Assembly: GCA_049997795.1 (NCBI GenBank)
Contig: JBEKVT010000001.1
Span: 173,222 to 237,221, forward strand
Source of the DNA: Minisyncoccia bacterium
GTDB lineage: Bacteria; Patescibacteriota; Minisyncoccia; Phycocordibacterales; PALSA-1337
Length of the DNA: 64,000 bases
Direction: 5' to 3'
This document shows, piece by piece, positions 10,201-50,540 of this stretch. Both the position numbers and the translations under genes were made by a program. Below the pieces are notes generated by a model. That model made no database searches and had not been told where the DNA came from. It saw nothing but the letters and a program-made list of their open reading frames with translations. Each line of letters begins with the position of its first letter. Position 1 is the stretch's first letter.

Positions 10201-10220
10201 CCTATGGCTCGCTCATCCTA

Positions 10221-24978: not shown

Positions 24979-25803
24979 ATGATGGCCGTGATGGATGTCA
25001 GACCGAAAAAGTCGCTCGGCCAGCATTTCCTGAATTCGCCGGCCGCGATCGCGAAGATAGTCGAAGCTGCCAGAATAGTGCCGGGTGAAACCGTCTTAGA
25101 GATAGGCCCGGGTACCGGAGTTTTGACGGATGCCTTGCTTAAGGCCGGGGCACGAGTCGTCGCTGTGGAAAAAGATGTTCGCTCTTTCGAATTCCTGAAA
25201 GAAAGATTCTCAAAAAATATTGCTGACGGGGCATTGGCCCTGCATCAGACAGACATTTTAAAAACGGATCGCACCGGCCTCGGATTGAAAGATGCCTCGT
25301 ACGCTGTGGTGGCCAATATCCCTTACTACATAACCGGCGCCATCCTCGAATCGTTCCTGGAATACGAGCCGCGGCCCGATAGGATGGTCTTGTTGGTCCA
25401 AAAAGAGGTGGCCGAACGTATCGTCGCTAAGAATAAAAAAGAGGGTGTCCTTTCTATATCGGTGAAGGCCTTCGGTACGCCTCGGATCATTTCAAAAGTC
25501 CAGCGCGGGGCTTTCACGCCACCGCCAAAGGTAGATTCGGCCATATTAGCCATCGCTGGCGTATCCGACCAGAATTTCAAGCAAAATGGCCTTGAAATAA
25601 GGCGTTTTTTTGAGGTCATCAAGGCCGGGTTCGCTCATAAAAGGAAGCTTGTAAGGCGTAATCTGGAGGGCACCGCGAGCACACCAAAAATTAGCCGCGC
25701 TTGGAAAAAATTAAGCCTGGATGAAAAACTCCGGGCTGAGGATATGACGCTTGAAGATTGGCTAGGTATCGCTAAAGAGACGCAGAACCCACCTTGGGGG
25801 TAA
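24979..25803 (+). CDS. rsmA: 16S rRNA (adenine1518/1519-N6) dimethyltransferase
   Basis: LGQHFL start motif and SAM-binding GPGTGVLT. Confidence 0.9.
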   Translation: MMAVMDVRPKKSLGQHFLNSPAAIAKIVEAARIVPGETVLEIGPGTGVLTDALLKAGARVVAVEKDVRSFEFLKERFSKNIADGALALHQTDILKTDRTGLGLKDASYAVVANIPYYITGAILESFLEYEPRPDRMVLLVQKEVAERIVAKNKKEGVLSISVKAFGTPRIISKVQRGAFTPPPKVDSAILAIAGVSDQNFKQNGLEIRRFFEVIKAGFAHKRKLVRRNLEGTASTPKISRAWKKLSLDEKLRAEDMTLEDWLGIAKETQNPPWG

Positions 25804-27696: not shown

Positions 27697-29253
27697 ATGA
27701 CCACTTCACTTCAAAGACACAGCAATAAGACAAAAGGCATTCTTGTGCTGATACTCGCCGTGGTCTTTCTATTCTATGGAGCGAGAGAGAACCAGGTCAG
27801 CGCCCAAGTGAAAGAGAATCCAGCCACCGTTCCTATCGGCACCGGCTGGGATCCGAATTCAATCATGGCCGACATGAAAAACTTCATCCTGGACAAGCTT
27901 GCTTCCACGGTCGCCAAACAGATTCTTCAACAAATGACCGTCGCCACCATCAATTGGATCAATTCCGGTTTCAACGGCAGCCCGGCCTTCCTGACCAATC
28001 CGGAAGGATTCTTCCTGGATACCGCCGACCAGATCACGGGAGCGATGATAGCCGAGAGCGGGCCGCTCCAAAAGCTCTGTTCGCCGTGGAACGTAGACAT
28101 CAGGCTGTCGCTGGCCCTCCTGCAGACCCAGCCCTTGTCTCAACGTTACATATGCACTCTGAGCACTGTCATCAACAATGCCAGCAACGCGACGATAGGC
28201 GGCCACAGCATCCAAGGCTTCGTGAGGGGAGATTTCTCTCAGGGCGGCTGGCCGGCCTTCATATCCATGACAACCGAGCCGCAGAATAATCCTTACGGGA
28301 TCTATCTCCAGGCCCATAGCGACATCTTGAGCGCCGTCGGAGCGAAACAGTCGTTCATCAACCAAGATCTGTTACAAGGTCACGGGTTCTTGTCATGGAA
28401 GAGCTGTAAGAACGTGCAGGTCTCGGCTCTGGACGCCAATCAAGCTATTTTTGGCAGCGCGTCCGTGCTCGGCAGTTCCGGCAACACCAGCGACAACAAC
28501 GGGTCGGTATTGCAGACCGTCCAACAGTGCGAGACCGAGACTCCAGGTTCCGTCATAGAGAACTCCCTTGCCGAGCACCTCGGCACCGGCGTAAGGGAGC
28601 TCGAGCTGGCCAACGACATAAATTCCGTCGTCAACGCCCTGGTCTCGCAGCTAGTCAGCCAGATGCTGACCAAAGGCCTGCGCTCTCTGAGTGCTGGCGG
28701 TTCCGGCCTAAGCGGCAACGGCTTGAGCAGCCTGAATTCATACACTTCCCAGTTACAAGCTGACGCCACGGCGCAAAAAAGCGTGCCGAATGTGGCGTCG
28801 ACTGGGTTCGGCTCGTCGTCTTCGGCCGAGTCGACATATGACCAGGCGATTGGCCTCATCACCGATAGCAAGGACCGCTACGAGACCGCTCGGTCGTGTT
28901 TCACCAACAAGCCAGATTACGCGGCCGCTCCCAGCGCATATAGCGCGGTCCTTGCCATAGACAACACCGTAGAGACCAGCATCGATCCCCTTCTCACGAA
29001 CCTCGCGGCCAAACGAGCAAGCGTCGCCAGCGCCCCAGAGAGCCCGGCCACCCTGAGCGTCTCCGCTACGACCGACATCGGCCAGCTGGTCGAATCCCAA
29101 ACGCAGATCGTCAACGACGCAGTCTCGCAAGGCCAAGCGAGCTCCGACCAGGCGGCGGCAGCGGCGACGGATCTGGAAAATGCCCAGACCCAAGCCCAGG
29201 CGTTCAACCAGGACGCTGCCAGATACCAGTCTGAATGCGATTCCATGCAATAA
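27697..29253 (+). CDS. hypothetical large secreted protein
   Basis: 518 aa, signal peptide GILVLILAVVFLFYGARENQVSAQ; Ser/Thr/Gln/Ala-rich; no identifiable catalytic motif. Confidence 0.45.
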   Translation: MTTSLQRHSNKTKGILVLILAVVFLFYGARENQVSAQVKENPATVPIGTGWDPNSIMADMKNFILDKLASTVAKQILQQMTVATINWINSGFNGSPAFLTNPEGFFLDTADQITGAMIAESGPLQKLCSPWNVDIRLSLALLQTQPLSQRYICTLSTVINNASNATIGGHSIQGFVRGDFSQGGWPAFISMTTEPQNNPYGIYLQAHSDILSAVGAKQSFINQDLLQGHGFLSWKSCKNVQVSALDANQAIFGSASVLGSSGNTSDNNGSVLQTVQQCETETPGSVIENSLAEHLGTGVRELELANDINSVVNALVSQLVSQMLTKGLRSLSAGGSGLSGNGLSSLNSYTSQLQADATAQKSVPNVASTGFGSSSSAESTYDQAIGLITDSKDRYETARSCFTNKPDYAAAPSAYSAVLAIDNTVETSIDPLLTNLAAKRASVASAPESPATLSVSATTDIGQLVESQTQIVNDAVSQGQASSDQAAAAATDLENAQTQAQAFNQDAARYQSECDSMQ

Positions 29254-29258
29254 AGCCG

Positions 29259-31196
29259 ATGAAAAAGCACTTGCCGCGCATAATCTGTATCTTCTCTCTC
29301 TCCACCTTGATCGTCGGGGTGTTCGGCCACGTGGCGCAGGCACAGTCCATCATCAGCAGCGTGCTCGGCTACGGCAACTTCGCCGCCCTTTTTGCCGAAG
29401 TCGTCGCCACGTTCATGAACTGGCTGATCACGGGCATGAGCGTCCTATTGGCCCTGGCCGGCTATCTCCTCAATTTCTCCATAAACCTCACTCTGAACAT
29501 CAAGAGCTTCGTGGACAGCTCCCCCGCCATATACAACACCTGGCGGGCCATCAGGGACATCAGTGACATGTTCATCATCTTCGTCCTTCTGTACGCCGCC
29601 ATCAGGCTCATCTTGGGCTTCGACGCCAAGTTCGGCTCGCTCATCAAGAACATCGTCGTCGCCGGCGTGCTCATAAATTTCAGCTTCTTCTTCGCCGGCC
29701 TGGGCATCGACGCCTCGAACATCATATCCGTACAGCTCTACAACGCCATCGCGCCGGCCAACAGCCTGAACGCCGGCACAGTGAGCTCGAACATGTTCCA
29801 AGGCAGCTTCACGACCGGTCTTGACGGCGGGCTGTCGGACGTCTTCATGAGCTCGCTGAAGATCCCGGCCCTGTATAACGAGAGCCTCACGGACCAGTCG
29901 GCCGCGAGCAAGACGGTGAGCGGGAATACCATCGGGGCGGGCACGGTTTCGGCGCCGCTCAAGATATTCCTCATGGGGGTAGTGGCGCTCGTGATAGAGC
30001 TGACCGCTACCCTGAGCTTCGCCGTGGCGGCCCTCGCCTTCGTCATCAGGTTCGTGATACTCCTATTGCTCCTGGCTTTCTCGCCGATATGGTTCGCCTC
30101 TCATGTGGTGCCAATGACGGCGGAATACGCCAAGAAATGGGTCAGTGCCTACAAGGGCATGCTCATCTTCATGCCGGCTTATCTCCTGCTCATGTATCTA
30201 GCCCTGAACGTCCTCACCACCAGCCCGCTTTTCGGCACCCTGAACAGCGCGGGGGCGCTGGGGAACGGGAAGTGGTACAGCGACTTCCTCGTCCTCGGCG
30301 TCAACGCCGCCATCGTCATCATCCTACTGAACGCGCCTCTGGTCGCCGCCGCCTCGATCGCCGGCACCTCGATCCCGCTCCTCGACAAGGCCGCCAAGAG
30401 CATCGGAGCTAGAGCGATATGGGGCAGGGTCGGGGGGTTTGCCGGGACGCACACCGCGGGCGCCTGGGCCGGCAGACTGGACAAGGGCCTCGCCGGTACG
30501 TGGGCCGGGAATACCCTGCTTGGAAGGGATATAAGGGATGTGACTACCGGCCCTCTGGCCAAGAGCAGGATGGGCGGAGTCCGTTCTTATGAGGAGAGGG
30601 TCACCGCCAGGAAAGAGGTGACTAAGAAGGCCAAGGAAATAGAGCACGGCGAAAGATTGGACAGCCTTCTAGACGAGGTCAAGGCCGGCAAGCCGATGAA
30701 GATCGACCCTGTCACTGGCAAACCCATGATAATGTCGATCATCGGGCAGATGAATGAGAAAGAGAAGCTGGCATTCATCGGGAAGAATGTCAAGGACGAG
30801 GCGGCTCTCAAGGAGATAATCAAACATGTCAAATCGTCAGACTTCGAGGCCGTCAAAAAATCAGACGATCTCCTGGATGAAGAGAAGATAAAGATCGCTA
30901 ACATGCGCAAGGACGCCTTGAACGACGCCCTCAGTAAACACCAGGCTGAAGCAATAAAGAACATGCTGGATAATATGGACGGCAAGGAGCTGCTGAAGCT
31001 TGGCGGCGGCACCTTGATACTCGATGAGGTGATCGGCAACTTGAAACCGAGCCAACTCAAGAATATGGCTGACGAGGGGCTGGATGACACGACAAAGCGC
31101 GTCATTGGGGGCGCGATAGATACGTGGCTCACTGCTCACGGAACTCCTCATCGCGCCAGAGGATATGTGAACAAGAATAGAGCCGAATGGACATGA
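29259..31196 (+). CDS. VirB6/TrbL-like polytopic membrane protein with long charged C-terminal domain
   Basis: signal peptide MKKHLPRIICIFSLSTLIVGVFGHVAQAQS, then at least 6 hydrophobic helices (e.g. LLMYLALNVLTTSPLFG), then a 250-aa Lys/Glu-rich coiled-coil-like tail; sits just upstream of the VirB3-like and VirB4 genes as in Gram-positive T4SS operons. Confidence 0.5.
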   Translation: MKKHLPRIICIFSLSTLIVGVFGHVAQAQSIISSVLGYGNFAALFAEVVATFMNWLITGMSVLLALAGYLLNFSINLTLNIKSFVDSSPAIYNTWRAIRDISDMFIIFVLLYAAIRLILGFDAKFGSLIKNIVVAGVLINFSFFFAGLGIDASNIISVQLYNAIAPANSLNAGTVSSNMFQGSFTTGLDGGLSDVFMSSLKIPALYNESLTDQSAASKTVSGNTIGAGTVSAPLKIFLMGVVALVIELTATLSFAVAALAFVIRFVILLLLLAFSPIWFASHVVPMTAEYAKKWVSAYKGMLIFMPAYLLLMYLALNVLTTSPLFGTLNSAGALGNGKWYSDFLVLGVNAAIVIILLNAPLVAAASIAGTSIPLLDKAAKSIGARAIWGRVGGFAGTHTAGAWAGRLDKGLAGTWAGNTLLGRDIRDVTTGPLAKSRMGGVRSYEERVTARKEVTKKAKEIEHGERLDSLLDEVKAGKPMKIDPVTGKPMIMSIIGQMNEKEKLAFIGKNVKDEAALKEIIKHVKSSDFEAVKKSDDLLDEEKIKIANMRKDALNDALSKHQAEAIKNMLDNMDGKELLKLGGGTLILDEVIGNLKPSQLKNMADEGLDDTTKRVIGGAIDTWLTAHGTPHRARGYVNKNRAEWT

Positions 31197-31864
31197 ATAT
31201 GAACCCACAAGAAGTACCAGAGACAATCAAGAGGTTGGCCGATGACCCGAAGATATATGACGCGATAGAAAAAATCGGGGACAAATTCGACCTGCACATC
31301 GATCAGATCGGGGACCTGGATGCGGAGGTGCGCAGGGTCATACTCGGCATAAGCAAGCCGACTGAGTTCATAAAAAACATCGCTAAGCTGCTGGAGATCG
31401 ACCAAGACAAGGGGGGGCGGATAGCTGAAGAGATAAACAAAGACGTAATTCAATCTATAAGATCCGAGCTGCAGTCACAGACATCGGATAACAGAGCCGC
31501 CGATAACCTATCTCCCATCGAGCGCGCTGGCGGTTTCGAGATAGAGCGGGAACCGGCGAAAAACGCCTCAGACGAGAAGGCCCGGGCCATGACGGAGACC
31601 CAGAAGATAAACATGCTCTCGGACATCGAGAGTCCGACGCCCATCAGGAAGGCGGTCCCGCAGGGCGAAGAGACCTTGAAGACGCTGCAGGGCGAAGAGA
31701 TCAGAAGGGAGCCTTTGGTAGATAGGCTTCTCAAGAATCCTTTGTCCCTTCCGGAGGAAAAGGTCGAGGGGGTCCCGGAAAGGGCACCGGCAGCGAGACC
31801 AGCGCCGAAGGCGGAGCCGCCGCGCAACCTGCCGACGAACGATCTTTATAGGGAGCCCGTCTGA
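31193..31864 (+). CDS. hypothetical acidic soluble protein
   Basis: start overlaps the preceding stop (ATGA); Asp/Glu-rich, no TM segments. Confidence 0.4.
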   Translation: MNMNPQEVPETIKRLADDPKIYDAIEKIGDKFDLHIDQIGDLDAEVRRVILGISKPTEFIKNIAKLLEIDQDKGGRIAEEINKDVIQSIRSELQSQTSDNRAADNLSPIERAGGFEIEREPAKNASDEKARAMTETQKINMLSDIESPTPIRKAVPQGEETLKTLQGEEIRREPLVDRLLKNPLSLPEEKVEGVPERAPAARPAPKAEPPRNLPTNDLYREPV

Positions 31865-31914: not shown

Positions 31915-32349
31915 ATGCGCTTCCAAGTCCCTCAATTCATCGAGGTCGAAGACAGGATCTTCGGGCCGCTCACTCTGAAACAATTCATATATCTGGCCGG
32001 GGGCGGCGGGCTTTCTTTCCTCGTATACGTCCTCGTCGGGAACATCGCCATAGCCATCCTTCCTATCCTCGTCATCATGGGGGGCGTATCGGCCTTGGCG
32101 TTCTATAAGGTCAACAACAAGCCCCTGATCGGCGTCCTGGAGTCGGCTTTCAAATACTGGCTCGGGGGCAAATTGTACATCTGGAAGAAAGAGGCCCGGC
32201 AGCCGCCGACCACGGCCGAAGCCGCAGCCAAGGACGTCAAGAGCTTCGCCTCGGTCATGGTGCCGAAGATCTCCGACAGCAAGCTGAAGGACTTGTCATG
32301 GAGCCTGGATATCAAAGAGAGCATATATTCGAGCAAGGATCAAAAGTGA
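31915..32349 (+). CDS. PrgI/TcpE-like (VirB3-like) small T4SS membrane protein
   Basis: N-terminus MRFQVPQFIEVEDRIFGPLTLKQFIYLAGGGG followed by two TM helices; matches the PrgI-family pattern of Gram-positive conjugation systems; stop overlaps the next start (TGATG). Confidence 0.55.
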   Translation: MRFQVPQFIEVEDRIFGPLTLKQFIYLAGGGGLSFLVYVLVGNIAIAILPILVIMGGVSALAFYKVNNKPLIGVLESAFKYWLGGKLYIWKKEARQPPTTAEAAAKDVKSFASVMVPKISDSKLKDLSWSLDIKESIYSSKDQK

Positions 32350-32993
32350 TGGCCAAGACCCAAGACACAACCCAGGATTTCGTGCCGATCCAGGAGATCC
32401 GCGACGGCGTGGTCATCCTGAAAGACGGCGGCATGCGCGCCATCATCCTGGCGACTTCCCTCAATTTCGCCCTGAAATCGGGTGATGAGCAGAGCGCCAT
32501 CCTGCTCCAGTTCCAGAATTTCCTGAACTCGCTGGACTTCTCCATCCAGATCTTCGTCCAGTCGAAGAAGCTCGACATCCGCCCCTACATCGCCCTCCTC
32601 GAAGACCGATACAAAGAGCAGGTGACTGAGCTCATGAAGATCCAGGTCCGCGAGTACATCGAGTTCATCAAGACCTTCGTGGAATCCACCAATATCATGT
32701 CTAAGAGCTTCTTCGTGGTCATACCGTATGACCCGCCGATACTATCGAACAAGAAGAACCCTCTTTCAGGCGTCTTTGGCGGCAAGAAGAAGGGCGGAGC
32801 GGGAGCCGCGGCCTCGCTCGACCAGCAATTCCAGGAATATCGGGGCCAGCTCGAGCAGCGCGTGGCGGTGGTCGAACAGGGCCTGGTGCGATGCGGCATC
32901 AGGGCGGCCGAGCTCGGCACCGAAGAGGTGGTGGAGCTATTCTATAAGATCTTCAATCCCGGCGAGACCGAGAAGCCTATACAGATAACATGA
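32349..32993 (+). CDS. virB4: VirB4-family ATPase, N-terminal domain fragment (split gene)
   Basis: DFVPIQEIRDGVVILKDGGMRAIILATSLNFALKSGDEQSAILLQFQNFLNSLDFSIQIF resembles the N-terminus of Gram-positive VirB4 homologues (ConE/PrgJ/TcpF type); ends with ATGA overlap onto the next ORF in another frame. Confidence 0.6.
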   Translation: MAKTQDTTQDFVPIQEIRDGVVILKDGGMRAIILATSLNFALKSGDEQSAILLQFQNFLNSLDFSIQIFVQSKKLDIRPYIALLEDRYKEQVTELMKIQVREYIEFIKTFVESTNIMSKSFFVVIPYDPPILSNKKNPLSGVFGGKKKGGAGAAASLDQQFQEYRGQLEQRVAVVEQGLVRCGIRAAELGTEEVVELFYKIFNPGETEKPIQIT

Positions 32994-34804
32994 GCATATT
33001 CTCGAAATTATTCGGCAAAAAGGCGCCTTCGCCCATCGTCTCGGTCCTCCCCGAAGAGATATATCAGGCTGGGGTCTTGGAATTGAAGGACGTCATCGCC
33101 CCGTCGGCCCTGAAGGTGAGCCCCAAGGACGTCAACCTGGGCGAGAAGGTCGGCCGGACGCTCTTCGTCATCTCATATCCGCGCTTCCTGGACGAGAGCT
33201 GGTTCGCGCCGATTATAAATCTCGACAAGGTCTTCAACGTCTCCATATTCATCCATCCCGTCGACACCGCCAAGATCCTTCGCCACTTCCAGAAGAAGGT
33301 CGCTGAGGTCCAGAGCCAGATATCGAGAAGGGAAGAGAAGGGCTTGGTCAGGGACCCGGCCCTCGACACCGCCTATCAGGACCTGGAGACCCTTCGCGAC
33401 CAGCTGATGCAGGCCCAGGAGCACCTTTTCGACGTCGGCGTCTACATAACCATCTTCGCCGACTCCGAGAACGAGCTAGACAAGCTGGAGTCGGAGATCA
33501 AATCAATCCTCGAAGCCAAGCTGGTCTATCTGAAACCGGCCTTGTTCCAGCAGGAGCAGGGCTTCAAGAGCGTCATCCCGATCGGCGATGACCAGCTGGC
33601 GGTCCATTCAAAATTGAATTCCTCGCCCCTCTCGAGCGTCTTCCCGTTCGTGTCCTTCGATCTGACTTCCAACAAGGGCATCCTTTACGGCATCAACCGC
33701 CACAACTCCTCGCTGGTCCTCTTCGATCGTTACTCCCTGGAGAACTATAATTCGGTGACCTTTGCCGTGGCCGGCGCCGGTAAATCCTACTGCACAAAGC
33801 TCGAGATCCTCCGCACTCTTATGTTCGACGGCGATGTCCTGGTCATCGACCCTGAGAAGGAATATGAGTACATGTCGGAGGCCACCGGCGGCAAGTATTT
33901 CAACATCTCCCTCAATTCCGAGCATCATATTAACCCGTTCGACCTGCCGGCCGTGGCCGAGGACGAATCCGCCGCAGACGTCTTGCGCTCGAACATCATC
34001 AACCTGGTCGGCCTCTTCCGCATCATGTTGGGCGGCCTTTCCCAGGAAGAAGACGCCATCATCGACCGGGCCATCACCGAGACTTACGCCCTGAAAGACA
34101 TCACCGCCGAATCAAATTTCCAGAGCGTGGAGCCGCCGCTCCTGTCCGACTTCGAGATGGTCCTCGCGGGGATGGAGGGCGCGGACTCGCTGGTCCAGCG
34201 CCTGACCAAGTACACCAAAGGCACGTGGTCCGGCTTCATCAACCGCCCGTCCAACATCGACATCAACAACAAATTCATCGTCTTCTCGCTCCGCGACATG
34301 GAAGACGAGCTCAAGCCGGTGGCTATGTACATCGTCACCCATTACATCTGGAACGCCGTCCGAAGGGTCAGGAAGAAGAGGCTTCTGGTCATAGATGAGG
34401 CTTGGTGGATGATGAAATCAGAAGACACGGCCTCGTTCCTGTTCAGCCTGGCCAAGCGGGGCCGCAAATACTATCTGGGCTTGGCCACCATCACCCAAGA
34501 CGTGGATGACTTCTTGAGGTCCCCGTACGGCCTGCCGATCCTCACGAACTCGTCCATCCAGATACTCTTGAAGCAATCGCCGACGATCATCGACCATATC
34601 CAGAAGACATTCAATCTGACCGATGAAGAGAAGTACCTGCTCCTCGAATCCGACGTCGGCGAGGGCATCTTCTTCGTCGGCCTGAAGCATGTGGCCATCC
34701 AGATCCGCGCCTCGTACACCGAAGACCAAATCATAACCACCAATCCGGCCCAGGTCATGCAGATCGAGCAGGCCAAGAGGGACCTCGAGCAGGCCGGGGG
34801 CTGA
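32990..34804 (+). CDS. virB4: VirB4-family T4SS ATPase (C-terminal AAA domain-containing part)
   Basis: Walker A AVAGAGKSYCTKLE, Walker B LLVIDEAWWMM, downstream GLATITQD; 604 aa. Confidence 0.8.
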   Translation: MSIFSKLFGKKAPSPIVSVLPEEIYQAGVLELKDVIAPSALKVSPKDVNLGEKVGRTLFVISYPRFLDESWFAPIINLDKVFNVSIFIHPVDTAKILRHFQKKVAEVQSQISRREEKGLVRDPALDTAYQDLETLRDQLMQAQEHLFDVGVYITIFADSENELDKLESEIKSILEAKLVYLKPALFQQEQGFKSVIPIGDDQLAVHSKLNSSPLSSVFPFVSFDLTSNKGILYGINRHNSSLVLFDRYSLENYNSVTFAVAGAGKSYCTKLEILRTLMFDGDVLVIDPEKEYEYMSEATGGKYFNISLNSEHHINPFDLPAVAEDESAADVLRSNIINLVGLFRIMLGGLSQEEDAIIDRAITETYALKDITAESNFQSVEPPLLSDFEMVLAGMEGADSLVQRLTKYTKGTWSGFINRPSNIDINNKFIVFSLRDMEDELKPVAMYIVTHYIWNAVRRVRKKRLLVIDEAWWMMKSEDTASFLFSLAKRGRKYYLGLATITQDVDDFLRSPYGLPILTNSSIQILLKQSPTIIDHIQKTFNLTDEEKYLLLESDVGEGIFFVGLKHVAIQIRASYTEDQIITTNPAQVMQIEQAKRDLEQAGG

Positions 34805-34809: not shown

Positions 34810-35457
34810 ATGGCCTCGCGCATAGGAAAAGGGGAATGGATCGCCTTGTATGCCGCAACCGGCGCGATCGATCTCATCCAGTTCCTGATCGATTTCACCG
34901 GCGTCGGCGCCGGGGTGAACGAGGCCGCCGATCCGTTCATTGGCGTCGCTCTCGGCGGCTACTTCCAGCTGCGCGGAGTCTCGATGATCAAAAATATCAG
35001 CCGCCTCATGTCGCTTCTCGGCGTCGTCGGGTTGGAGGAAGTGACTTTCGGGGTCGCACCGGCCTGGGTCGTGGACACGTGGTACATCCACAAGACCGTG
35101 CGCCAAGAGAAAGTGGAACAAGAGGAGCAAGAACAGGGCGAGGCCGTAACTTTGAACGTGGCCGATCGGCCCTTGAATCAAGATGGTCGGCGTGAGCCAT
35201 CAGCAGACGGCTCCAAGCCGAGCCGCAACCAAGGTCTCCAACCGCTCAATGTGGACGGTGTAAGGTCACCAAGACCGTCATTGAGTTCGACAATAGGCTC
35301 GGCCGAGTTCAAATCACGGACGGAGAAAGAGATTCAGGATAAAACATATATTCAGGCCAAGTTGAGGGGCTATACTGAGGAACAAGCGACTGAACAGGCG
35401 ACAAACGCAACAAAACCTGATTATAAACAGGTCTGGAAGGCACACGGCGACAGTTAA
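34810..35457 (+). CDS. hypothetical membrane protein
   Basis: 215 aa, 2-3 hydrophobic helices in the N-terminal half, hydrophilic Glu/Gln-rich tail. Confidence 0.4.
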   Translation: MASRIGKGEWIALYAATGAIDLIQFLIDFTGVGAGVNEAADPFIGVALGGYFQLRGVSMIKNISRLMSLLGVVGLEEVTFGVAPAWVVDTWYIHKTVRQEKVEQEEQEQGEAVTLNVADRPLNQDGRREPSADGSKPSRNQGLQPLNVDGVRSPRPSLSSTIGSAEFKSRTEKEIQDKTYIQAKLRGYTEEQATEQATNATKPDYKQVWKAHGDS

Positions 35458-35509: not shown

Positions 35510-36556
35510 ATGAATCGGTCCGTTCTTCTCTTCAAAACCGTTTTGTTGGTCATGGCTATCTCAGCCGTGGCGGCTTCGGCGGCCTTCGCCCAGGGCATCC
35601 CGACGACCATAGGTGGCCTGGAGCTCACAGCCTCGTCCGACAGCCCGGCCCCGGGCCAGTCAGTGACCATCACGGCCGCGAGCTACAGCGTCGATATCAA
35701 CGCCGCGAATCTGGTTTGGACGGCTGGCGGTAAGACGATAGCCAAGGGAGTCGGTGTAACAAGCGTCACGGTCCAGGCCCCGGCCTTGGGCAAGCGGCTC
35801 AAGGTGAACGTGTCGGCGGTCGCCTCGGACGGGACCTCCTTTAATAGTTCCGTAGTCATAGGCTCCGGCGCAGTGGACCTCATAATCGAGCCTGACGGTT
35901 ATGCGCCTCCCTTTTTCAAAGGAAAGCTGCCTGTGGTATACCAGAATGCCGTTAAGGTCACCGCCGTGCCCCATCTCGCCAATTCTTCGGGGGTCGAGTA
36001 CGACCCCAAGACCTTGGTGTACAAGTGGCAACAGGGTGATTCGGTATTGCAAGACCAGTCTGGATACGGCAGGCAATCGGTCGTTATACAGGGCGGCATC
36101 ATCCCGCGGGCCTATACTCTGACGGCCACAGTGACGACCCGCGACGGCAGTACGCAAGGGATGGGACTAACCACGGTATCTTTCGGACCTCCATCCCTAA
36201 TTTTCTACAGGAACGATCCATTGTACGGGCCTCTTTTCAACAACGCCATAGGGAACAGTATATATCTGGGAACCCAGCGCGAGGCTGGCGTCCTCGCAGT
36301 ACCTTACGGCTTCGGCCTGCCGGCGTCTGGCCTCGGCGATTTGTCGCTCGCTTGGTTCATCAACGGCAAGGAGCATCCGGAGTTGGCGTCGGGCGATTCC
36401 GTCACCCTGCGCGCGCCGGACAATTCGGCTGGGTCGTCGAACATCGAGCTGGACGTCGACAATAAGATCGACATCCTCCAACAGGCCAGTGCCATATTCC
36501 AGGCGGTGTTCAACGCCGCGGCGAGCACTACCTCGCAGTCGCCGGTGACTTTTTAA
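35510..36556 (+). CDS. hypothetical secreted beta-rich protein
   Basis: signal peptide MNRSVLLFKTVLLVMAISAVAASAAFAQG; repetitive beta-strand-like segments (VTITAASYSVDINAANLVWTAGG, VTVQAPALGKRLKVNVSAVASDG), suggestive of Ig-like folds. Confidence 0.45.
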   Translation: MNRSVLLFKTVLLVMAISAVAASAAFAQGIPTTIGGLELTASSDSPAPGQSVTITAASYSVDINAANLVWTAGGKTIAKGVGVTSVTVQAPALGKRLKVNVSAVASDGTSFNSSVVIGSGAVDLIIEPDGYAPPFFKGKLPVVYQNAVKVTAVPHLANSSGVEYDPKTLVYKWQQGDSVLQDQSGYGRQSVVIQGGIIPRAYTLTATVTTRDGSTQGMGLTTVSFGPPSLIFYRNDPLYGPLFNNAIGNSIYLGTQREAGVLAVPYGFGLPASGLGDLSLAWFINGKEHPELASGDSVTLRAPDNSAGSSNIELDVDNKIDILQQASAIFQAVFNAAASTTSQSPVTF

Positions 36557-36607
36557 TCAAATTCCGTGGACAATTCTCATCTCAAATCAATCGTCAAGGG
36601 GGGCCTT

Positions 36608-38053
36608 ATGGCCGCGGCTCTTTTGGCGCTAGCGTTAATGACCCCGCTGGCGGCCTCAGCACAAACGGCATCGTCTGGTGTGACGTCATTTTCAGCAGAA
36701 CCATTAACTTTACCGACAACTCCTTCTCCACAGACAGCGCCATCCTCACTAACAACATTACCACCAGCAACGTTATCTTTACCCGCAACACCTTCTTCTG
36801 TGACGCCGTTTTCGGCAGCACCATTAACCTTGCCAACCTTATTGCCCACGGCGCCTTCACAAAACAACCCAGTAAACAACCCGGCGGCGCCGACGTATAC
36901 CCCCCTCGAGCCGTTGCCGTGCATCCCCACAGGGAGCAGCACCTCTTGCACGAGTGGCGGAGTAACTTACACCAGGGGAAGTTCGATGAGCAGCGTCGAT
37001 TTTCAGGGCTATATCCAATACATGTTCAACCTGGCCATCGCCGTGGCGGCGGCCGCGGCTGTATTCATGATCGTCTTCGGCGGCTTCCAGTATATGACCA
37101 CCGACTCGTGGCAAGGGAAGAGCGCCGGGTTGGATAAGGCCAGGAACGCCGTCTATGGCCTTCTTTTGGTGCTCGCCTCATACCTCATCCTGCGGACCAT
37201 TGATCCGCGCCTGGTGGCCATCCCGAGCACTTTGGTGGCGCCGCTCAACATCAATTATGGGGGCCTGACCACGTCCGAGAGCCTTCTTTCCACGATAGCA
37301 AGCGACGCCAATCAATACTTATCTCAAGACAAGCAGTTCATGGGCGACGCCGCGGCGACGCAAAGCAAGATAACCGACCTGGAATCTCAGAAGACAGCTC
37401 TGGAAAACAAGATATGTTCGGCTCCAGGAAACTCTTGTCCTGGAGGCCCGGACGTCGCCAACCAGATGTGCAGTGACGCGATCTCCAACAAAGACGACCC
37501 TATCTATAATGATTGCGTGGCCCTGGCAAAGCTCAACGATCAGGAAGGCGGGCTCAAAGGAACGCTGTGGACTGAGACTGCGCAACATCTCATGGCCGGC
37601 AATCTGAGCGCGTGCTTCTCGACCGGCGGCGCCCAGTCGGACCCATCCGCCCAAGCGGACGCCTGTCATAAAATGATCAATGATTGGGCTAATACCTACA
37701 GCGGTCTGTCGACCGGGGCGGGACAATCGGCTCAAATGATAAGCGACTACGCCGCCTACGCGAACGCCATCATCGATATCCAAAAAACTATCCTGGCCTA
37801 TAACCCCGGCGCGGCCTCGACAATCAACACACTTGAGAACATCCAGAGTATAGCGTCCCTCGGCGCATCGAAGGCCTTAGGGACGAACACCATCGTCAGT
37901 TGGCTGTTACCTAACAGCTTGACTACCTCCGGGACCGTCAAGGGCATACAATCCATAGCGGACAAGACGACCATTCAGGACCCGTCCTTGAGAGCCCAAT
38001 TCGTCAGCCAAGTGCAGGCGTATGAGGCGCAGCTCAACGGCGGCAGAAAATGA
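36608..38053 (+). CDS. secreted protein with tandem Pro/Ser/Thr repeats and a VirB2/TrbC-like two-helix hydrophobic hairpin (candidate pilin)
   Basis: start chosen at the ATG preceded by the Shine-Dalgarno AAGGGGGG; signal peptide MAAALLALALMTPLAASAQT; two roughly 40-aa repeats (VTSFSAEPLTLPTT / VTPFSAAPLTLPT); hairpin YMFNLAIAVAAAAAVFMIVFGG-FQYMTTDSWQGKSAGLDKARN-AVYGLLLVLASYLIL. Confidence 0.4.
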   Translation: MAAALLALALMTPLAASAQTASSGVTSFSAEPLTLPTTPSPQTAPSSLTTLPPATLSLPATPSSVTPFSAAPLTLPTLLPTAPSQNNPVNNPAAPTYTPLEPLPCIPTGSSTSCTSGGVTYTRGSSMSSVDFQGYIQYMFNLAIAVAAAAAVFMIVFGGFQYMTTDSWQGKSAGLDKARNAVYGLLLVLASYLILRTIDPRLVAIPSTLVAPLNINYGGLTTSESLLSTIASDANQYLSQDKQFMGDAAATQSKITDLESQKTALENKICSAPGNSCPGGPDVANQMCSDAISNKDDPIYNDCVALAKLNDQEGGLKGTLWTETAQHLMAGNLSACFSTGGAQSDPSAQADACHKMINDWANTYSGLSTGAGQSAQMISDYAAYANAIIDIQKTILAYNPGAASTINTLENIQSIASLGASKALGTNTIVSWLLPNSLTTSGTVKGIQSIADKTTIQDPSLRAQFVSQVQAYEAQLNGGRK

Positions 38054-39366
38054 AAAAAACAAACCTCATCATATTGATAGCCGTGATCGTCTTCGTCCTC
38101 GTCGCAGCCGGAGGGACGTACTGGTTCTTCTTCATGCAAGCCCCGGCTCCGACTACGACCGGAACCGGCGGGACGGGCCAGTCCGGCTTCCAGCCCTTCG
38201 GCAGGACGACACCGTTCGGGGGCGGCTCGAATACAAATGCGACCGGCACGAGTACCGGTAACCAGAATTACAATGGTTGGGTACCGGGGGCTCCGTTCAA
38301 GCTTCCGATCTTGCGCTTGCTTTCCGACACGCCGATCGGCGGCTACGGCGCTTCGACCACTGCCTCGACTACCGTGGTGCGCTGGGTCGATCGGGGGAGA
38401 GGAAATGTGTATGAAGCGACGTATGATTCGCCGCTCATCACGACCATCTCCAACACCGTCGTGCCAAGGATATACGAGAGTATGTGGAACAAGAACTTAA
38501 CGGCCTTCATAGGCTCGCTCCTCCCGGACGGCGATCGGGCGCCAACGAACGTATATGCCCAGATCGTCGCCCATTCGACTTCGACCGGGGCCATGACGAG
38601 CACTGGAAGCGCATCTGGGAACGCCTCCGTCACGCCATTCGAACTGCGGGGCAAAAATCTGCCGACCGGCCTCATCGGCTACGCCGTCTCGCCAGACAAG
38701 AGCAAGCTATTCATGCTCATAAACCAGAATGGTAACGGCGTTGGGTATGTCTCGACCTTCGATGGTCAGAAGACGGCCGCGATCTTCACGTCCCCGCTCA
38801 CTGAGGTCAATGTCGACTGGCCGACGGATAACGCAATCGCCATAACCACCAAAGGATCGTCCGTCTATGACGGTTTCCTCTACCTGGTCAATCCGAAGAC
38901 TGGTGTATGGAAAAGAGCCGTCGGGCCGCTCCCGGGACTCAGCGCTTCGGTGAGCCACGATGGTAAATATGCTCTTGTCTCGTCGGCGGACGGCAACAAC
39001 GGAATCTCGACGAGCATATACTCTCTGGCCTCCGGCACTTCCGCAAACGCCGCAATCCATACCTTGGCTGACAAGTGCGCGTGGGGTAATTTCTACAAAG
39101 ACACGGTGTACTGCGCGGTGCCGTCGCAGGCTGTCACCGGAGCTTATCCGGAAGACTGGTACGCCGGCACGCTTTCGACCATCGACAAGATATGGCAGCT
39201 TGACGCCTTGACGGGAGGGGTCCGCCTGGTCTCCTCGATCACGGGCCAATCTGACCGTGTCGTCGATGCCTTCAACCTCGGCCTGGACGCCAAGGACGGC
39301 TACCTCTTCTTCATGAACAAGGATGACTTGTCTTTCTGGTCGCTGGACCTCGTGCGATCGCAATAG
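38050..39366 (+). CDS. membrane-anchored beta-propeller-like protein
   Basis: N-terminal anchor LIILIAVIVFVLVAAGGTYWFFF; Gly/Thr-rich linker; repeated segments resembling PD40/TolB-type blades (DGKYALVSSADGNNGISTSIYSL); start overlaps the previous stop (ATGA). Confidence 0.45.
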   Translation: MKKTNLIILIAVIVFVLVAAGGTYWFFFMQAPAPTTTGTGGTGQSGFQPFGRTTPFGGGSNTNATGTSTGNQNYNGWVPGAPFKLPILRLLSDTPIGGYGASTTASTTVVRWVDRGRGNVYEATYDSPLITTISNTVVPRIYESMWNKNLTAFIGSLLPDGDRAPTNVYAQIVAHSTSTGAMTSTGSASGNASVTPFELRGKNLPTGLIGYAVSPDKSKLFMLINQNGNGVGYVSTFDGQKTAAIFTSPLTEVNVDWPTDNAIAITTKGSSVYDGFLYLVNPKTGVWKRAVGPLPGLSASVSHDGKYALVSSADGNNGISTSIYSLASGTSANAAIHTLADKCAWGNFYKDTVYCAVPSQAVTGAYPEDWYAGTLSTIDKIWQLDALTGGVRLVSSITGQSDRVVDAFNLGLDAKDGYLFFMNKDDLSFWSLDLVRSQ

Positions 39367-39408: not shown

Positions 39409-40152
39409 CTACATCTTGAGGTGCCTCTTTCGTATGTACAATTCCTGGAAGAGCGTCATGAGAGAGCTGGTCATCCAGTAGACGGCCATAACGGATGATG
39501 CTTCGGGAAAGCGGGCGGGAATGATCCAGTATATCGAAACGAAAGCCAGGACTGGCACGAGATATTTCATCTGCGTGTTCATTGAATCAGCCAGTCTGGC
39601 CGGCGAGCTCTGTCCTGGCGGGGCTTTGGGCGCCTGCTTGGCTTGTTTGGAGGCCAGCGAGAACTGGAGCTGGAGGAATTGGATGATGCCCGTGGCGACC
39701 GCCAGGATGAGGCTCGGCTTGGTCAAATCTATGAACCCGAGAAAATTGGTCTTCAGAATGGGCGCGAAAACTAGAGGGTATAGGAGGTTGGTTTGGACCG
39801 TCGGGATGATCTTATAGAAGACCGAGATGAGCGCGAGCAGGATGGGCAGTTGGATGATAAGGAGCAGGAAGCCGGAAAAGGGCTTGACGCCCTTCTCCTT
39901 GTAGAGCTCCATGATCTTCAAGGCCTGGACCTGGCGGTCGCTCGCATACTGGTTCCTCAGCCTGTTCGCCTCCGGCTCGATGCTCTTCATGCGCACCTGG
40001 GTGAGCAGGGCCGACTTCGAGAGAGGGAAGAGGATGACTTTGACGATCGCCGTGAAGATTATCACTGCTATGCCCACGTCAATCCACGGCAAGAGGTCCA
40101 TGATGACGATCAAGCAGTTGTAGAGCGGCCGGAAGATGAACTCGTTATACAT
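39409..40152 (-). CDS. yidC: membrane protein insertase YidC (short form)
   Basis: LLPWIDVGIAVIIFTAIVKVILFPLS and 5 TM helices typical of YidC/Oxa1; conserved rnpA-yidC order; start chosen at MYNEFIF. Confidence 0.8.
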   Translation of the reverse strand: MYNEFIFRPLYNCLIVIMDLLPWIDVGIAVIIFTAIVKVILFPLSKSALLTQVRMKSIEPEANRLRNQYASDRQVQALKIMELYKEKGVKPFSGFLLLIIQLPILLALISVFYKIIPTVQTNLLYPLVFAPILKTNFLGFIDLTKPSLILAVATGIIQFLQLQFSLASKQAKQAPKAPPGQSSPARLADSMNTQMKYLVPVLAFVSIYWIIPARFPEASSVMAVYWMTSSLMTLFQELYIRKRHLKM

Positions 40153-40163
40153 GTCGTGTAATG

Positions 40164-40517
40164 TTAGCGCAAAACCCCGGCCTTCACAAAAAGATCTCGG
40201 AGGTCGCATGTCATCTCCGTCATTGTGGCGGTCGTGGCCTTCCTCGTGGCGAACACAATGGCGCGGAGGCCCGTTTTACCGACCATCCGGAGCAGGGGCC
40301 TGGCCGCGGCATACATCCGGCGTCTCATGGCGTTCCTGGTCACGGCCGTCTTGGCGATCCTCTTCGGCGCCACGACGGATGCGCGGAAACTCTTTCCGTC
40401 GCCGGCGTCAAACGATCTCAATAAGAAAAGGGGGGAATGAAAAATCCTCCCTTTTTCCATCGTTTCATCGAATTGTCCCTTGGAAAGCCTATTAGATCGG
40501 CGGAACATCCTGTTCAT
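40164..40517 (-). CDS. rnpA: ribonuclease P protein component
   Basis: RLSKGQFDETMEKGRIFHSPLFLL matches the RnpA family; start (MNRMF) overlaps the rpmH stop by 1 nt. Confidence 0.7.
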   Translation of the reverse strand: MNRMFRRSNRLSKGQFDETMEKGRIFHSPLFLLRSFDAGDGKSFRASVVAPKRIAKTAVTRNAMRRRMYAAARPLLRMVGKTGLRAIVFATRKATTATMTEMTCDLRDLFVKAGVLR

Positions 40518-40651
40518 TATACCGCTATGCGGCGGCGCCCCTTGGCTCGGCGACGGGCCAGGGTCCTTTTGCCGCCGGGGGTTCTCATTCTCGTTCTGAA
40601 CCCGTGAGACCTGGCGCGCTTGCGTTTTCTCGGTTTGTAGGTGAACGACAT
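40517..40651 (-). CDS. rpmH: 50S ribosomal protein L34 (below the ORF-track length cutoff)
   Basis: hand translation [44 protein letters not shown], 44 aa, classic L34 sequence. Confidence 0.85.
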
Positions 40652-40670
40652 GTGGGAAGAGCATAGCAGA

Positions 40671-40709
40671 CTATCCACAAATTATCAACATGTTTTTCAG
40701 ACATCCACA
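40671..40709 (+). promoter_or_regulatory. cluster of three DnaA-box-like 9-mers upstream of dnaA
   Basis: CTATCCACA, TTATCAACA and ACATCCACA in the same orientation within the 106-bp rpmH-dnaA spacer (consensus TTATCCACA). Confidence 0.5.
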
Positions 40710-40757
40710 AGTTTGCAGATTTGTAAACAAGTATATACTTACCCCCGACGTACCCCC

Positions 40758-42101
40758 ATGAACGACTTCTCAAAGATGTGGCAGACGGCTCTCATCGAGA
40801 TAGAATCGGCCGTGTCCCAGGCCAATTTTTCCACGTGGTTCAAGGAGACGGTCATACTGAGGGAGGAGGGCGGGACCATATATCTCGGCGTGCCAAACTC
40901 GTTCACCCAGGAATGGCTCCAGAAGAAATTCCACAACTCCATCCTTCGCATCCTCCGGCAGATGAACGACCGGGTGCGAGCCCTGGAATACGTCATCGTC
41001 AAGGACGAGGCCCGGCCGGCCGGGCCGAGGAAGTCCTCGTCTCCGGCGCCGACCATGCCGATGCCGCTCCAGGACTTCTATATCAATAAAGAAGACAACC
41101 TCAATCCCAGATACACCTTCGATACTTTCGTGGTCGGGCCTTTTAACGAGCTGCCATACGCCGCCTCCCAAACAGTCATCAAGAATCCCGGGCAGACATA
41201 CAATCCGCTGTTCATCTACGGGGAGACCGGGAGAGGCAAAACCCATCTGATCCAGGCGGTCGGCAACCAGATCAAGGCGCTGTACCCCAACAAAAAAGTC
41301 TTCTATCTCACCTCCGAACGGTTCGGCAGCGAGCTCCTGGCGGCCCTCCAGGAGGGGAAGGCCCAGCAATTCAAGGATAAGTACCGTAAATACGAGGTCC
41401 TGATCATGGACGACGTGCAATTCTTCTCCGGCAAGGAGAAATTCCAGGAGGAGTTCTTCCATCTGTTCAATCTGTTCAAGGACAGCGGCCGGCAGCTGGT
41501 CTTCTCGTCGGACAAGCATCCGAACACTCTCCCCGGTATGGAGGACCGCTTGCGCGGCCGATTCAACGCCGGTATGGTCCTCGACATCCCCGAGCCGGAT
41601 CACGAGTCGAGGATGTGCATCGTCAAGGCCAAGTGCGGCGCCTATAACGTCACCTTGTCGAATGAGGCAGTCGAGTATGTGGCCTCGACCATCAAAGACA
41701 ACATCCGTGAGATAGAAGGGGTGGTCAATATCATCGCTTGCCAGAGCCAATTCAAGAACCGGGAGCTGAATCTGAACGAGATAAGGAGCATCCTGAAGAA
41801 CAACACCAAACCAAGGAAGCTCCTGTCCGTGAAGGACTTAGTCAAGACCGTCTCAGAATTCTACAATATCGGGGAAGAAACCATATACAACAAGACCAGA
41901 CGGAAAGAGGTGGTGAGGCCGAGGCAGGTCGTCATGTACCTCCTGCGGGAGGACTTCAGCGTCTCCTTTCCGTCGATCGGCGAGAAGTTGGGAGGCAGGG
42001 ACCACACCACCGTCATTCATTCCTATAACAAGATGAAGGAGGAAATAAAGGTCGATCCGCTCCTGTCGCAGGAGATAAGTCAGCTGCGGTCGATGATCTG
42101 A
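40758..42101 (+). CDS. dnaA: chromosomal replication initiator DnaA
   Basis: start chosen at MNDFSKMWQTALIEIE; AAA+ Walker A GETGRGKTHL, Walker B LIMDDVQF; C-terminal DNA-binding domain (VVMYLLRE...GGRDHTTVIHS). Confidence 0.92.
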   Translation: MNDFSKMWQTALIEIESAVSQANFSTWFKETVILREEGGTIYLGVPNSFTQEWLQKKFHNSILRILRQMNDRVRALEYVIVKDEARPAGPRKSSSPAPTMPMPLQDFYINKEDNLNPRYTFDTFVVGPFNELPYAASQTVIKNPGQTYNPLFIYGETGRGKTHLIQAVGNQIKALYPNKKVFYLTSERFGSELLAALQEGKAQQFKDKYRKYEVLIMDDVQFFSGKEKFQEEFFHLFNLFKDSGRQLVFSSDKHPNTLPGMEDRLRGRFNAGMVLDIPEPDHESRMCIVKAKCGAYNVTLSNEAVEYVASTIKDNIREIEGVVNIIACQSQFKNRELNLNEIRSILKNNTKPRKLLSVKDLVKTVSEFYNIGEETIYNKTRRKEVVRPRQVVMYLLREDFSVSFPSIGEKLGGRDHTTVIHSYNKMKEEIKVDPLLSQEISQLRSMI

Positions 42102-42335: not shown

Positions 42336-43442
42336 ATGAAGTGCGAAGTCCAGGTGGAAAAACTCAAACGCGCGATATCTCTGACCGAGAAAGTCGCAGG
42401 TCGCCGCACCACATTACCTGTATTGTCTTGCGTTTTTGTCGACATAAAGAAGGAACGCGCCGTTTTCAAGGCCACTAATCTCGATCTCGGCGTCAGCGTG
42501 GAGATCCCGGTGAAATCCGATTGGGAGGGAGTATTCGCCGTTCCGGCCCGCACAATTTCTTCGTTCCTGGCTCAGATAGGAGACAAAGAGCAGCTGGCCC
42601 GCCTCGAGCCCATCTCGAAAAACCTCGATATAACCCTGTCCAAATCGAGAGGTGTCTTGAAGACGCTCCCACCCGAAGACTTCCCGGAGATTCCGACGGT
42701 CGCTGAAGGGAAGACGATATCTTTCCCGTCCGAGGCCTTGGTCAAAGGATTCAGATCCGTGTGGTACAGCGCCTCGGCCTCCAACGTGAAGCCGGAGCTC
42801 TCGAGCATATATGTGCACCATGACGCCGGATTCGTGGTGTTCGTCGCCACAGACTCCTTCCGTCTGGCCGAGAAGAAGGTCCGTCTGCAGAAGACGGCCG
42901 GGTTCGATGACATCCTCATCCCCTTCAAGAATAGCAGTGAGATAACCAGGATCTTGGAGGCAATGGGACCGACCGTCACCATGCGGTCGAACAAGAACCT
43001 GGTGTCCTTCGAGTCGGGCGACGTCCGAGTGACCTCTCGTGTCATCGACGGAGTCTTCCCGGATTACCGGCAAATCGTACCAAAAGGCTATACCACCGAG
43101 GCGATCGTCCTGAAGCAGGATCTCATGAACGCCCTGAAGGTCTCCACTGTGTTCTCTGATGCCTTCAACCAGATCCGCCTCACCGCCGACCCAAAGAAGA
43201 AGACCTTCAGCATCGAGACCAAGAACGCCGATGTCGGCGAGAACCGCTCCGAGATAGACGCCGCTCTCTCCGGAGAGCCGATCGAGGTCAACTTCAACTG
43301 TAAATATGTCTCCGACAGCCTCCAATCTATCGAAGCGGACAGCGTCTCTCTCCAGTGGAACGGCCGCAACAAGCCCATGGTCGTGAGGCCGGTTTCCGGG
43401 GACCAGACCTTCATGTACCTAGTCATGCCCATGAACAGGTGA
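42336..43442 (+). CDS. dnaN: DNA polymerase III beta sliding clamp
   Basis: 368 aa, three-domain clamp; conserved dnaA-dnaN synteny; TATAAA hexamer 6 nt upstream of the ATG. Confidence 0.9.
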   Translation: MKCEVQVEKLKRAISLTEKVAGRRTTLPVLSCVFVDIKKERAVFKATNLDLGVSVEIPVKSDWEGVFAVPARTISSFLAQIGDKEQLARLEPISKNLDITLSKSRGVLKTLPPEDFPEIPTVAEGKTISFPSEALVKGFRSVWYSASASNVKPELSSIYVHHDAGFVVFVATDSFRLAEKKVRLQKTAGFDDILIPFKNSSEITRILEAMGPTVTMRSNKNLVSFESGDVRVTSRVIDGVFPDYRQIVPKGYTTEAIVLKQDLMNALKVSTVFSDAFNQIRLTADPKKKTFSIETKNADVGENRSEIDAALSGEPIEVNFNCKYVSDSLQSIEADSVSLQWNGRNKPMVVRPVSGDQTFMYLVMPMNR

Positions 43443-50530: not shown

Positions 50531-50540
50531 ATTCCCGCTA

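Follow-up and report, generated by a model that had tools for sequence, protein, structure and literature searches.

The window, that is, the whole stretch of 64,000 nucleotides analysed here from contig JBEKVT010000001.1 of a Minisyncoccia bacterium, carries a chromosomal type IV secretion system (T4SS) gene cluster in the order PrgI(VirB3)-TrsD-VirB4, followed by a protein with a pilin domain (Table 1). The core of this cluster consists of two open reading frames, ORF1 and ORF2, which lie in different frames, overlap by ATGA and each possess a start codon of their own, the second an ATG, as a sequence-only reading of this DNA had described. Their products add up to 818 amino acids, which agrees with the length of a complete VirB4, as likewise stated there. 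The PrgI gene upstream is recognized by its Pfam family (E 1.2e-10; 42.2 bits against a cut-off of 27), and its stop codon shares one nucleotide with the start of ORF1 (TGATG). Besides this VirB3-type partner, ORF2 adjoins another T4SS component, a 495-residue protein whose residues 150-210 match the T4SS_pilin model (E 4e-6; 27.2 bits against a cut-off of 26.6). The 653-residue protein preceding the cluster had no match in the Pfam scan and is a putative VirB6-like channel component, a candidate role suggested by its position and hydrophobicity. The dnaA gene follows approximately 6 kb downstream of virB4. When 28 ORFs of the window were compared with Pfam, no relaxase and no type IV coupling protein came up, with smaller ORFs and those lacking a Pfam match covered less than exhaustively.

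Table 1. Features of the T4SS gene cluster and its surroundings (positions within the window).
Feature	Position	Strand	Basis
653-aa polytopic membrane protein, directly 5' of the cluster	29235..31196	+	Position and hydrophobic sequence
PrgI family (VirB3-like) small membrane protein, 144 aa	31915..32349	+	Pfam PF12666
ORF1, TrsD-like / "TraC-like" (PF26593), 214 aa, detached VirB4 N-terminal module	32349..32993	+	NCBIfam, AF2, Foldseek
ATGA stop/start overlap, trsD-virB4	32990..32993	+	Sequence
ORF2, short-form VirB4 ATPase, 604 aa, rest of N-domain and P-loop ATPase	32990..34804	+	CD1110 profile, Pfam
495-aa secreted/membrane protein with T4SS pilin (VirB2-like) domain, same cluster	36566..38053	+	PF18895
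yidC	39409-40209
dnaA, marks the replication-origin region; context, not a component	40641..42101	+	Bac_DnaA 1.1e-63, DnaA_N, Bac_DnaA_C
dnaN	42336-43442

At the junction, the sequence reads ...CAG ATA ACA TGA, with the ATG of ORF2 at 32990-32992 and ORF2 in the -1 frame relative to ORF1. The homopolymer run that had been suggested as a possible mark of error is missing, given that no run at the junction exceeds 2 nt. The list of open reading frames also holds a longer version of ORF1 (231 aa, start at 32298); the start at 32349 is preferred because the homologue P0001 is 214 aa long and matches with 100% identity over 100% of the query.

Both Walker motifs are visible in ORF2, namely AVAGAGKS (Walker A) at residues 259-266 and LLVIDE (Walker B) with D469 and E470, and its Pfam matches comprise P-loop_TraG (9.9e-27), AAA_10, DUF87 and TraC_F_IV (278-367 of 375). 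Against the profile of the CD1110-family VirB4 (NF045971) it scores 379.3 bits, thus passing the cut-off of 325, and covers positions 184-733 of 752, which bears out the earlier assignment of the remaining N-domain and the ATPase core to this frame. The complete N-terminal domain is consequently not located on the ATPase polypeptide, since the profile match starts at position 184 and positions 1-105 are matched by ORF1. The two products hence map to consecutive, non-overlapping parts of one and the same VirB4 profile.

ORF1 likewise aligns with the first ~180 positions of single-chain VirB4 profiles, in agreement with the earlier view that it represents the VirB4 N-terminal region. In addition to the CD1110 profile, the NCBIfam matches include VirB4_plasma (99-233 of 894) and TrbE (53-167 of 852). 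The match to the NCBIfam TrsD/TraD model NF041427 (E 4.5e-7) reaches 29.9 bits, which is far under the curated cut-off of 200. The Pfam scan gave no match for ORF1 with a Pfam copy that did not contain the PF26593 (TraC-like) model, and this family is precomputed for P0001, a protein identical to ORF1; the closest database record is an identical entry from a Minisyncoccia MAG. ORF1 is probably a member of the TrsD/"TraC-like" family, whose homology to VirB4 has been described as remote (PMC12102498); the term TrsD does not occur in the main text of Guglielmini 2014 (PMC4027160). A profile search with the ORF1 family alignment against PDB sequences returned a chance match alone (E 0.7), which made a fold comparison necessary. 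The AF2 model of ORF1 (pLDDT 89) was therefore compared with the PDB using Foldseek, and the top 14 matches were all R388 TrwK/VirB4 (probability 0.97-1.0, TM about 0.5), with borderline E-values (best 1.1e-3) and an rmsd of 6-8 A. As the Foldseek output does not include the aligned TrwK residues, it is the NCBIfam profile coordinates that place ORF1 at the N-terminus.

The separation of the two genes is widely conserved among relatives. The best 120 of 7944 ORF1 homologues are all stand-alone proteins of 210-230 aa from Patescibacteria, and the identical 214-aa protein is present on 14 contigs from four sources. Among 50%-identity representatives, 2416 matches were obtained, the best 150 of which comprise 149 proteins of <450 aa and a single one of 797 aa. 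In 80 species-level loci that were retrieved, ORF1 lies directly upstream of virB4 in 79, and the remaining locus ends before virB4. The alignment of orthologues proposed earlier as a check gave a uniform answer, with the split kept in every one of the 76 loci that could be classified: the last residue of ORF1 always falls on one and the same alignment position, ORF2 begins with an ATG of its own as Met1, and a fused trsD-virB4 gene occurs in none of them. The nucleotides around this boundary vary considerably. The ORF1 stop codon is TAA in 44, TGA in 19 and TAG in 13 of these loci, all three relative frames occur (30/28/18), and the spacers range from -4 to +194 nt with a median of 5. The ATGA overlap is found in 10 loci and the rest have spacers of 1-194 nt, which exceed 30 nt in 13 loci. 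Both termini at the break are conserved, namely the end of ORF1, ...FNPGETEKPIQIT followed by the stop codon, and the beginning of ORF2, MSxFSKLFGKK..PIVSxLPEEIYQAGVLELKDVIAPSALK; ORF2 is 76-93% identical to its counterparts in 79 other species. The split is ancient and located at a fixed protein boundary, and both of the termini it created are under purifying selection.

One natural in-frame fusion of TrsD and VirB4 exists, the 797-aa protein mentioned above (P0177/L083), which is known from a single contig only and lies in the same synteny from PrgI to dnaA. Its junction is cleanly coding in frame, and stops crowd the other two frames, which is why the fused protein is taken as a real ORF. 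Such a fusion constitutes Rosetta-stone evidence that TrsD and VirB4 work together. The TrsD part of the fusion is weakly similar to the N-terminus of ORF2 (BLASTP, 27% identity, E 0.33), which prompted the idea that the VirB4 N-domain is an internal duplication with the split between its repeats; this idea was rejected after a comparison of both family alignments by hhalign, in which the probability was 0.24%.

We consider it very probable that the locus comprises two separate conserved genes, trsD and a short virB4, of the chromosomal, origin-proximal T4SS of a Patescibacteria (Paceibacteria/Minisyncoccia) genome. The trsD gene would encode the first ~180-210 residues, corresponding to the start of the N-terminal domain of a single-chain VirB4, and virB4 would encode the remainder of this domain together with the ATPase. 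The two chains may reassemble non-covalently into a VirB4-equivalent unit, in which the upstream PrgI/VirB3 probably takes part; in the R388 structure, VirB3 binds the VirB4 N-domain. It is this reassembled unit that would drive secretion. In this genome, PrgI, TrsD and VirB4 are probably translated in a coupled manner and in roughly equimolar amounts owing to the TGATG and ATGA overlaps. The translational coupling proposed in the sequence-only reading is plausible for this genome but is not a conserved trait, as the ATGA overlap is confined to 10 of the 76 loci and 13 have spacers above 30 nt.

The same reading had also considered that a single-base frameshift near 32990, caused by a sequencing or assembly error or by recent pseudogenization, has cut one virB4 gene in two. 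The adjacency of the ORFs, their different frames, the 4-nt overlap and the normal summed length would all be expected from such an event, and single-chain VirB4 families as well as one fused form from Patescibacteria do exist. However, a chance lesion does not explain why the break is shared by all 76 related species with differing stops, in all three frames and with spacers as long as 194 nt, why every ORF2 begins with an ATG of its own and a conserved N-terminus, or why an identical 214-aa product recurs on 14 contigs; together with the junction free of homopolymers, this leaves a frameshift with practically no credibility. Programmed recoding would produce a single-chain VirB4 from the two frames during translation, by a -1 ribosomal frameshift or, in other species, by readthrough. 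It is conceivable insofar as no stop codon interrupts the ORF2 frame over the 14 codons preceding its ATG, such that a -1 slip there would yield a fusion, and insofar as the natural fused protein indicates that a joined chain can in principle function. Inspection of 32948-32990, however, revealed no canonical X XXY YYZ slippery heptamer. Moreover, relatives differ in their frame relation (0, +1 or +2), and the sequence within spacers of 30-194 nt is unrelated and partly palindromic, so that no single recoding mechanism could be conserved, and we regard this explanation as extremely improbable.

It is also unlikely that TrsD is an independent accessory factor or paralogue, acting for example in regulation or substrate handling, which merely resembles the VirB4 N-terminus and is not its missing piece. 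Long C-terminal tails of low complexity, which VirB4 lacks, are present in some homologues, and the trsD gene of Gracilibacteria does not lie next to virB4 (PMC12102498), so that TrsD may be independent to some extent. Against this, the first ~183 profile positions missing from ORF2 are exactly those supplied by ORF1, the tight adjacency holds for nearly all loci, a natural fusion exists, the fold matches VirB4 alone among solved structures and an origin by internal duplication is unsupported by hhalign. Returning to the two-gene reading, a more far-reaching version would have TrsD as a dissociable VirB4 N-terminal subdomain, more than a remote relative, and the VirB4 of Patescibacteria and pGO1-type systems as an obligate two-chain enzyme, with a fixed and selected fission point that lets the VirB3-TrsD-VirB4 membrane anchor assemble, or be regulated, apart from the ATPase; we put this forward tentatively, as a possibility somewhat short of an even chance. 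Three observations would speak for TrsD as a subdomain: the resemblance of its predicted fold to TrwK, the way in which ORF1 and ORF2 cover complementary parts of the VirB4 profile, and the fused protein that occurs in nature.

Hundreds of Patescibacteria genomes have kept the two-gene arrangement, as have some Firmicutes plasmids, and it has already been published (PMC12102498); it is therefore real but ordinary. The earlier suspicion of a genuine split was thus well founded, but not its description as unusual, since the split is standard in Patescibacteria, occurs on Bacillota plasmids and is already known. For annotation, this means that trsD-virB4 pairs in Patescibacteria or Firmicutes elements should neither be flagged as frameshifted pseudogenes nor "repaired". 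The biological interest is modest and lies in the T4SS being one of the few large machines kept by reduced-genome epibionts; the system is reported to be essential for the host-dependent growth of Patescibacteria epibionts, and trsD is essential in Ca. Southlakia epibionticum (PMC12102498). A two-chain motor would also be useful knowledge for modelling or purifying a T4SS, although the arrangement itself is already documented.

Among known systems, the chromosomal T4SS of Patescibacteria (TrsD-VirB4-PrgI-VirB6-VirB2-like) is the closest, with 2272 TrsD homologues, 1664 of them adjoining virB4, and TrsD beside virB4 as the commonest T4SS component (Microb Genom 2025, PMC12102498). The window shares the order of PrgI, TrsD and VirB4, the nearby pilin-domain protein and the chromosomal location near dnaA, dnaN and KsgA, in agreement with the published position of these T4SS genes near dnaA and KsgA (PMC12102498), and relaxase and coupling protein were not found among the ORFs scanned here. 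There is no substantive difference, and the window represents one more example.

The Bacillota megaplasmids Geobacillus pGspE55-1 and C. botulinum pCBG have the same order of PrgI, TrsD-like protein and VirB4 with overlapping gene ends; their TrsD-like proteins (318 and 257 aa, next to ATPases of 636 and 620 aa) are only 24-30% identical to ORF1 and are found in a plasmid context. The trsD-trsE arrangement of the Staphylococcus plasmid pGO1 is likewise known, and is grouped here with TraD/TraE of pSK41/pIP501-type systems in the MPF-FATA class. As in the window, a homologue of the VirB4 N-terminus of ~200 aa is encoded just upstream of a short VirB4 ATPase (~650 aa), but the match of ORF1 to the TrsD/TraD profile NF041427 is only remote, and the pGO1 system is a plasmid conjugation machine with relaxase and coupling protein, whereas the cluster described here is chromosomal and neither was found in the window. 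Finally, the single-chain VirB4 proteins (CD1110 family, TrbE, R388 TrwK and F TraC) have the same ATPase core and the parts of the N-domain in the same order; here, in contrast, a distinct gene with a stop codon of its own encodes the first ~180-210 residues, and the ATPase is translated from a separate start.

The division of VirB4 between two adjoining genes, trsD (ORF1) and a gene for a short VirB4 ATPase (ORF2), is real but ordinary for this lineage, and has already been described in [quoted passage not shown] (Microb Genom 2025; PMC12102498); the sequence-only reading had held that a genuine split would be unusual. What is added here is a structural match of TrsD to VirB4 (TrwK of R388), a fission point that is invariant in 76 species and a naturally re-fused form, which together support the view that VirB4 is here a two-chain protein and TrsD its detached N-terminal module.

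Coordinates, sizes, strand, differing frames and the ATGA overlap are exactly as first read from the sequence, and the assignment of the VirB4 N-terminal region to ORF1, and of the remainder with the Walker A/B core to ORF2, was borne out by profile searches. ORF1 matches three models of single-chain VirB4 at N-terminal positions (CD1110, 1-105 of 752; VirB4_plasma, 99-233 of 894; TrbE, 53-167 of 852), as well as the TrsD/TraD model of stand-alone proteins of about 200 aa (NF041427; E 4.5e-7, under its curated cut-off). ORF2 scores 379 bits against the CD1110-family model (curated cut-off 325), covering positions 184-733 of 752 only, and has P-loop_TraG, AAA_10 and DUF87 domain matches, with Walker A at residues 259-266 and Walker B at D469 E470.

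Features of the T4SS cluster and its surroundings (window positions unless a locus is named)
Feature	Coordinates	Strand	Remark
Four-tRNA cluster	10003-11111	-	
UvrD-type helicase	23042-24970		upstream of cluster
KsgA	24979-25803		upstream of cluster
Flanking ORF	29235-31196	+	
Flanking ORF	31187-31864	+	
PrgI-family, VirB3-like protein	31915-32349		directly upstream of ORF1; PF12666, E 1.2e-10
ORF1 (TrsD-like)	32349-32993	+	214 aa
ORF2 (short VirB4 ATPase)	32990-34804	+	604 aa
Flanking ORF	34810-35457	+	
Flanking ORF	35510-36556	+	
T4SS pilin-domain protein	36566-38053	+	495 aa; pilin domain at residues 150-210; downstream of virB4
Flanking ORF	38050-39366	+	
yidC	39409-40209	-	downstream of cluster
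dnaA	40641-42101		downstream of cluster
dnaN	42336-43442		downstream of cluster
PilB/GspE-type ATPase	48857-50746	-	T2SSE, E 4e-114; MshEN domain
Three further tRNAs	55230, 60793, 61439		
Fused TrsD-VirB4 (P0177)	L083:544-2937		797 aa; GCA_964615945.1, contig CAZTUR010000004.1, Patescibacteria MAG

At the junction (CAG ATA ACA TGA), the ATG of ORF2 occupies 32990-32992, placing ORF2 in the -1 frame relative to ORF1. Inspection of the window sequence revealed no homopolymer run at the junction and no canonical slippery heptamer 5' of it. The alternative that the split is a frameshift arising from sequencing error or pseudogenisation is refuted by comparison with relatives. ORF1 has 7944 significant matches among 5.8 billion proteins, of which the best 120 are all stand-alone proteins of 210-230 aa from Patescibacteria MAGs (79-100% identity); they include an identical protein of 214 aa, labelled Minisyncoccia bacterium, that occurs on 14 contigs from four sources. 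With each GTDB species represented by one genome, at least 427 loci were found to encode a relative; 80 were retrieved and compared with both ORFs by tblastn, and 76 were classifiable. In all 76, ORF1 terminates at the same aligned residue and ORF2 opens with its own ATG, aligned to Met1, so the boundary is fixed and the split genuine and conserved in orthologues. The stop codons vary (TAA 44, TGA 19, TAG 13), as do the spacers (-4, i.e. ATGA, in 10 loci; 1-30 nt in 53; 40-194 nt in 13), and all three relative frames are used (30, 28 and 18 loci). Because the break is fixed while stops, spacers and frames differ, sequencing error and recent pseudogenisation are excluded; the varying frames and spacers likewise exclude a conserved programmed frameshift. 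The termini are conserved as a protein end in ORF1 (...FNPGETEKPIQIT*) and as a protein start in ORF2 (MSxFSKLFGKK...PIVSxLPEEIYQAGVLELKDVIAPSALK). Identity to the window proteins across 79-80 species-level genomes (76-93% for the ATPase, 65-86% for TrsD) is high for a Patescibacteria protein and agrees with a core role under strong constraint, not with mobile-element cargo.

Longer spacers at three retrieved loci (L004:4640-4753, L021:4640-4738 and L036:4643-4836) hold palindromic elements sharing gtcattcccgcgaaagcgggaatccag and its inverse, which look like small insertions of REP/MITE type that the trsD-virB4 gap tolerates.

A profile of the ORF1 family (73 diverse members) found nothing among PDB sequences. 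The AlphaFold2 model from the same alignment is confident (mean pLDDT 89, pTM 0.80) and predicts a VirB4-like fold: in a Foldseek search of solved structures, TrwK/VirB4 chains of the R388 T4SS take the first 14 places (probability 0.97-1.0, query-normalised TM 0.48-0.53, E-values borderline at 1.1e-3 for the best), followed by unrelated proteins at probabilities of 0.47 or less. Since the Foldseek output does not give the aligned TrwK residues, it is the NCBIfam profile coordinates that place ORF1 in the N-terminal part of VirB4. That ORF1 and the N-region of ORF2 are internal duplicates was rejected (hhalign probability 0.24%).

Searching 1.84 billion 50%-identity representatives with ORF1 (E <= 1e-3) gave 2416 matches; of the 150 best, a single one, P0177, is a fused form, which thus exists but is rare, and the other 149 are all under 450 aa. 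Residues 7-215 of P0177 align to ORF1, and it also aligns to residues 27-594 of ORF2 at 56% identity; it is clean in-frame coding, shares the synteny of the split forms (PrgI ... rnpA-yidC-dnaA) and has a shorter linker, about 26 N-terminal ATPase residues being absent. Representatives of 280-440 aa consist of TrsD and a low-complexity tail rich in Pro/Thr/Ala/Gln, which the window TrsD lacks; in five homologues of 356-443 aa (P0150, P0172, P0176, P0204 and P0209) such C-terminal tails span 150-230 aa.

The pair thus comprises two cistrons with a fixed boundary, conserved termini, complementary VirB4 profile coverage and a rare natural fusion. The main remaining rival, which makes TrsD an accessory factor in its own right that merely resembles the VirB4 N-terminus, finds its best argument in Gracilibacteria, where trsD does not adjoin virB4; of 2272 published TrsD homologues, 1664 are virB4-associated, and the virB4-adjoining trsD of Ca. 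Southlakia epibionticum is essential (PMC12102498). The natural fusion serves as Rosetta-stone evidence that both products act together, and we consider the accessory-factor reading very improbable. As a two-chain VirB4, TrsD and the short VirB4 would associate non-covalently and rebuild a complete protomer, whose N-domain may bind PrgI/VirB3 by analogy with VirB3 in the R388 inner-membrane complex, where such binding is established (cited in PMC12102498). In the window genome, the ATGA overlap and the single base shared by the PrgI stop and the ORF1 start (TGATG) could couple translation of PrgI, TrsD and VirB4; coupling is not universal, because spacers exceed 30 nt in 13 of 76 relatives, some being filled with palindromic repeats.

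The cluster is chromosomal and origin-proximal, and the window also encodes NusA, trigger factor, PNPase, PolA and a class A PBP. The PilB/GspE-type ATPase lies 14 kb away from the T4SS and points to a type IV pilus system that shares this region. None of the five flanking ORFs has a significant Pfam match; they are likely lineage-specific T4SS components and include a 348-aa signal-peptide protein and, upstream, a 653-aa polytopic membrane protein, by position a candidate VirB6 analogue. The pilin-domain protein, far bigger than a normal VirB2 pilin, has N-terminal Pro/Thr/Ser-rich near-repeats (...PLTLPT...) and a C-terminal extension of about 280 aa. The 28 window ORFs scanned yielded neither a relaxase nor a coupling protein.

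In Paceibacteria, the T4SS genes are located close to dnaA, dnaN, KsgA and RnpA, and a relaxase is usually absent (PMC12102498); the window cluster is one more instance of this arrangement, all findings matching. Elsewhere TrsD has been found in the pGO1 subclass of MPF-FATA (PMC12102498). By tblastn, 56 Bacillota plasmid records contain ORF1 relatives at 23-32% identity: in Geobacillus pGspE55-1, PrgI is followed by a TrsD-like protein of 318 aa and a short VirB4 of 636 aa, and in C. botulinum pCBG by proteins of 257 and 620 aa, respectively, the gene ends overlapping in both.
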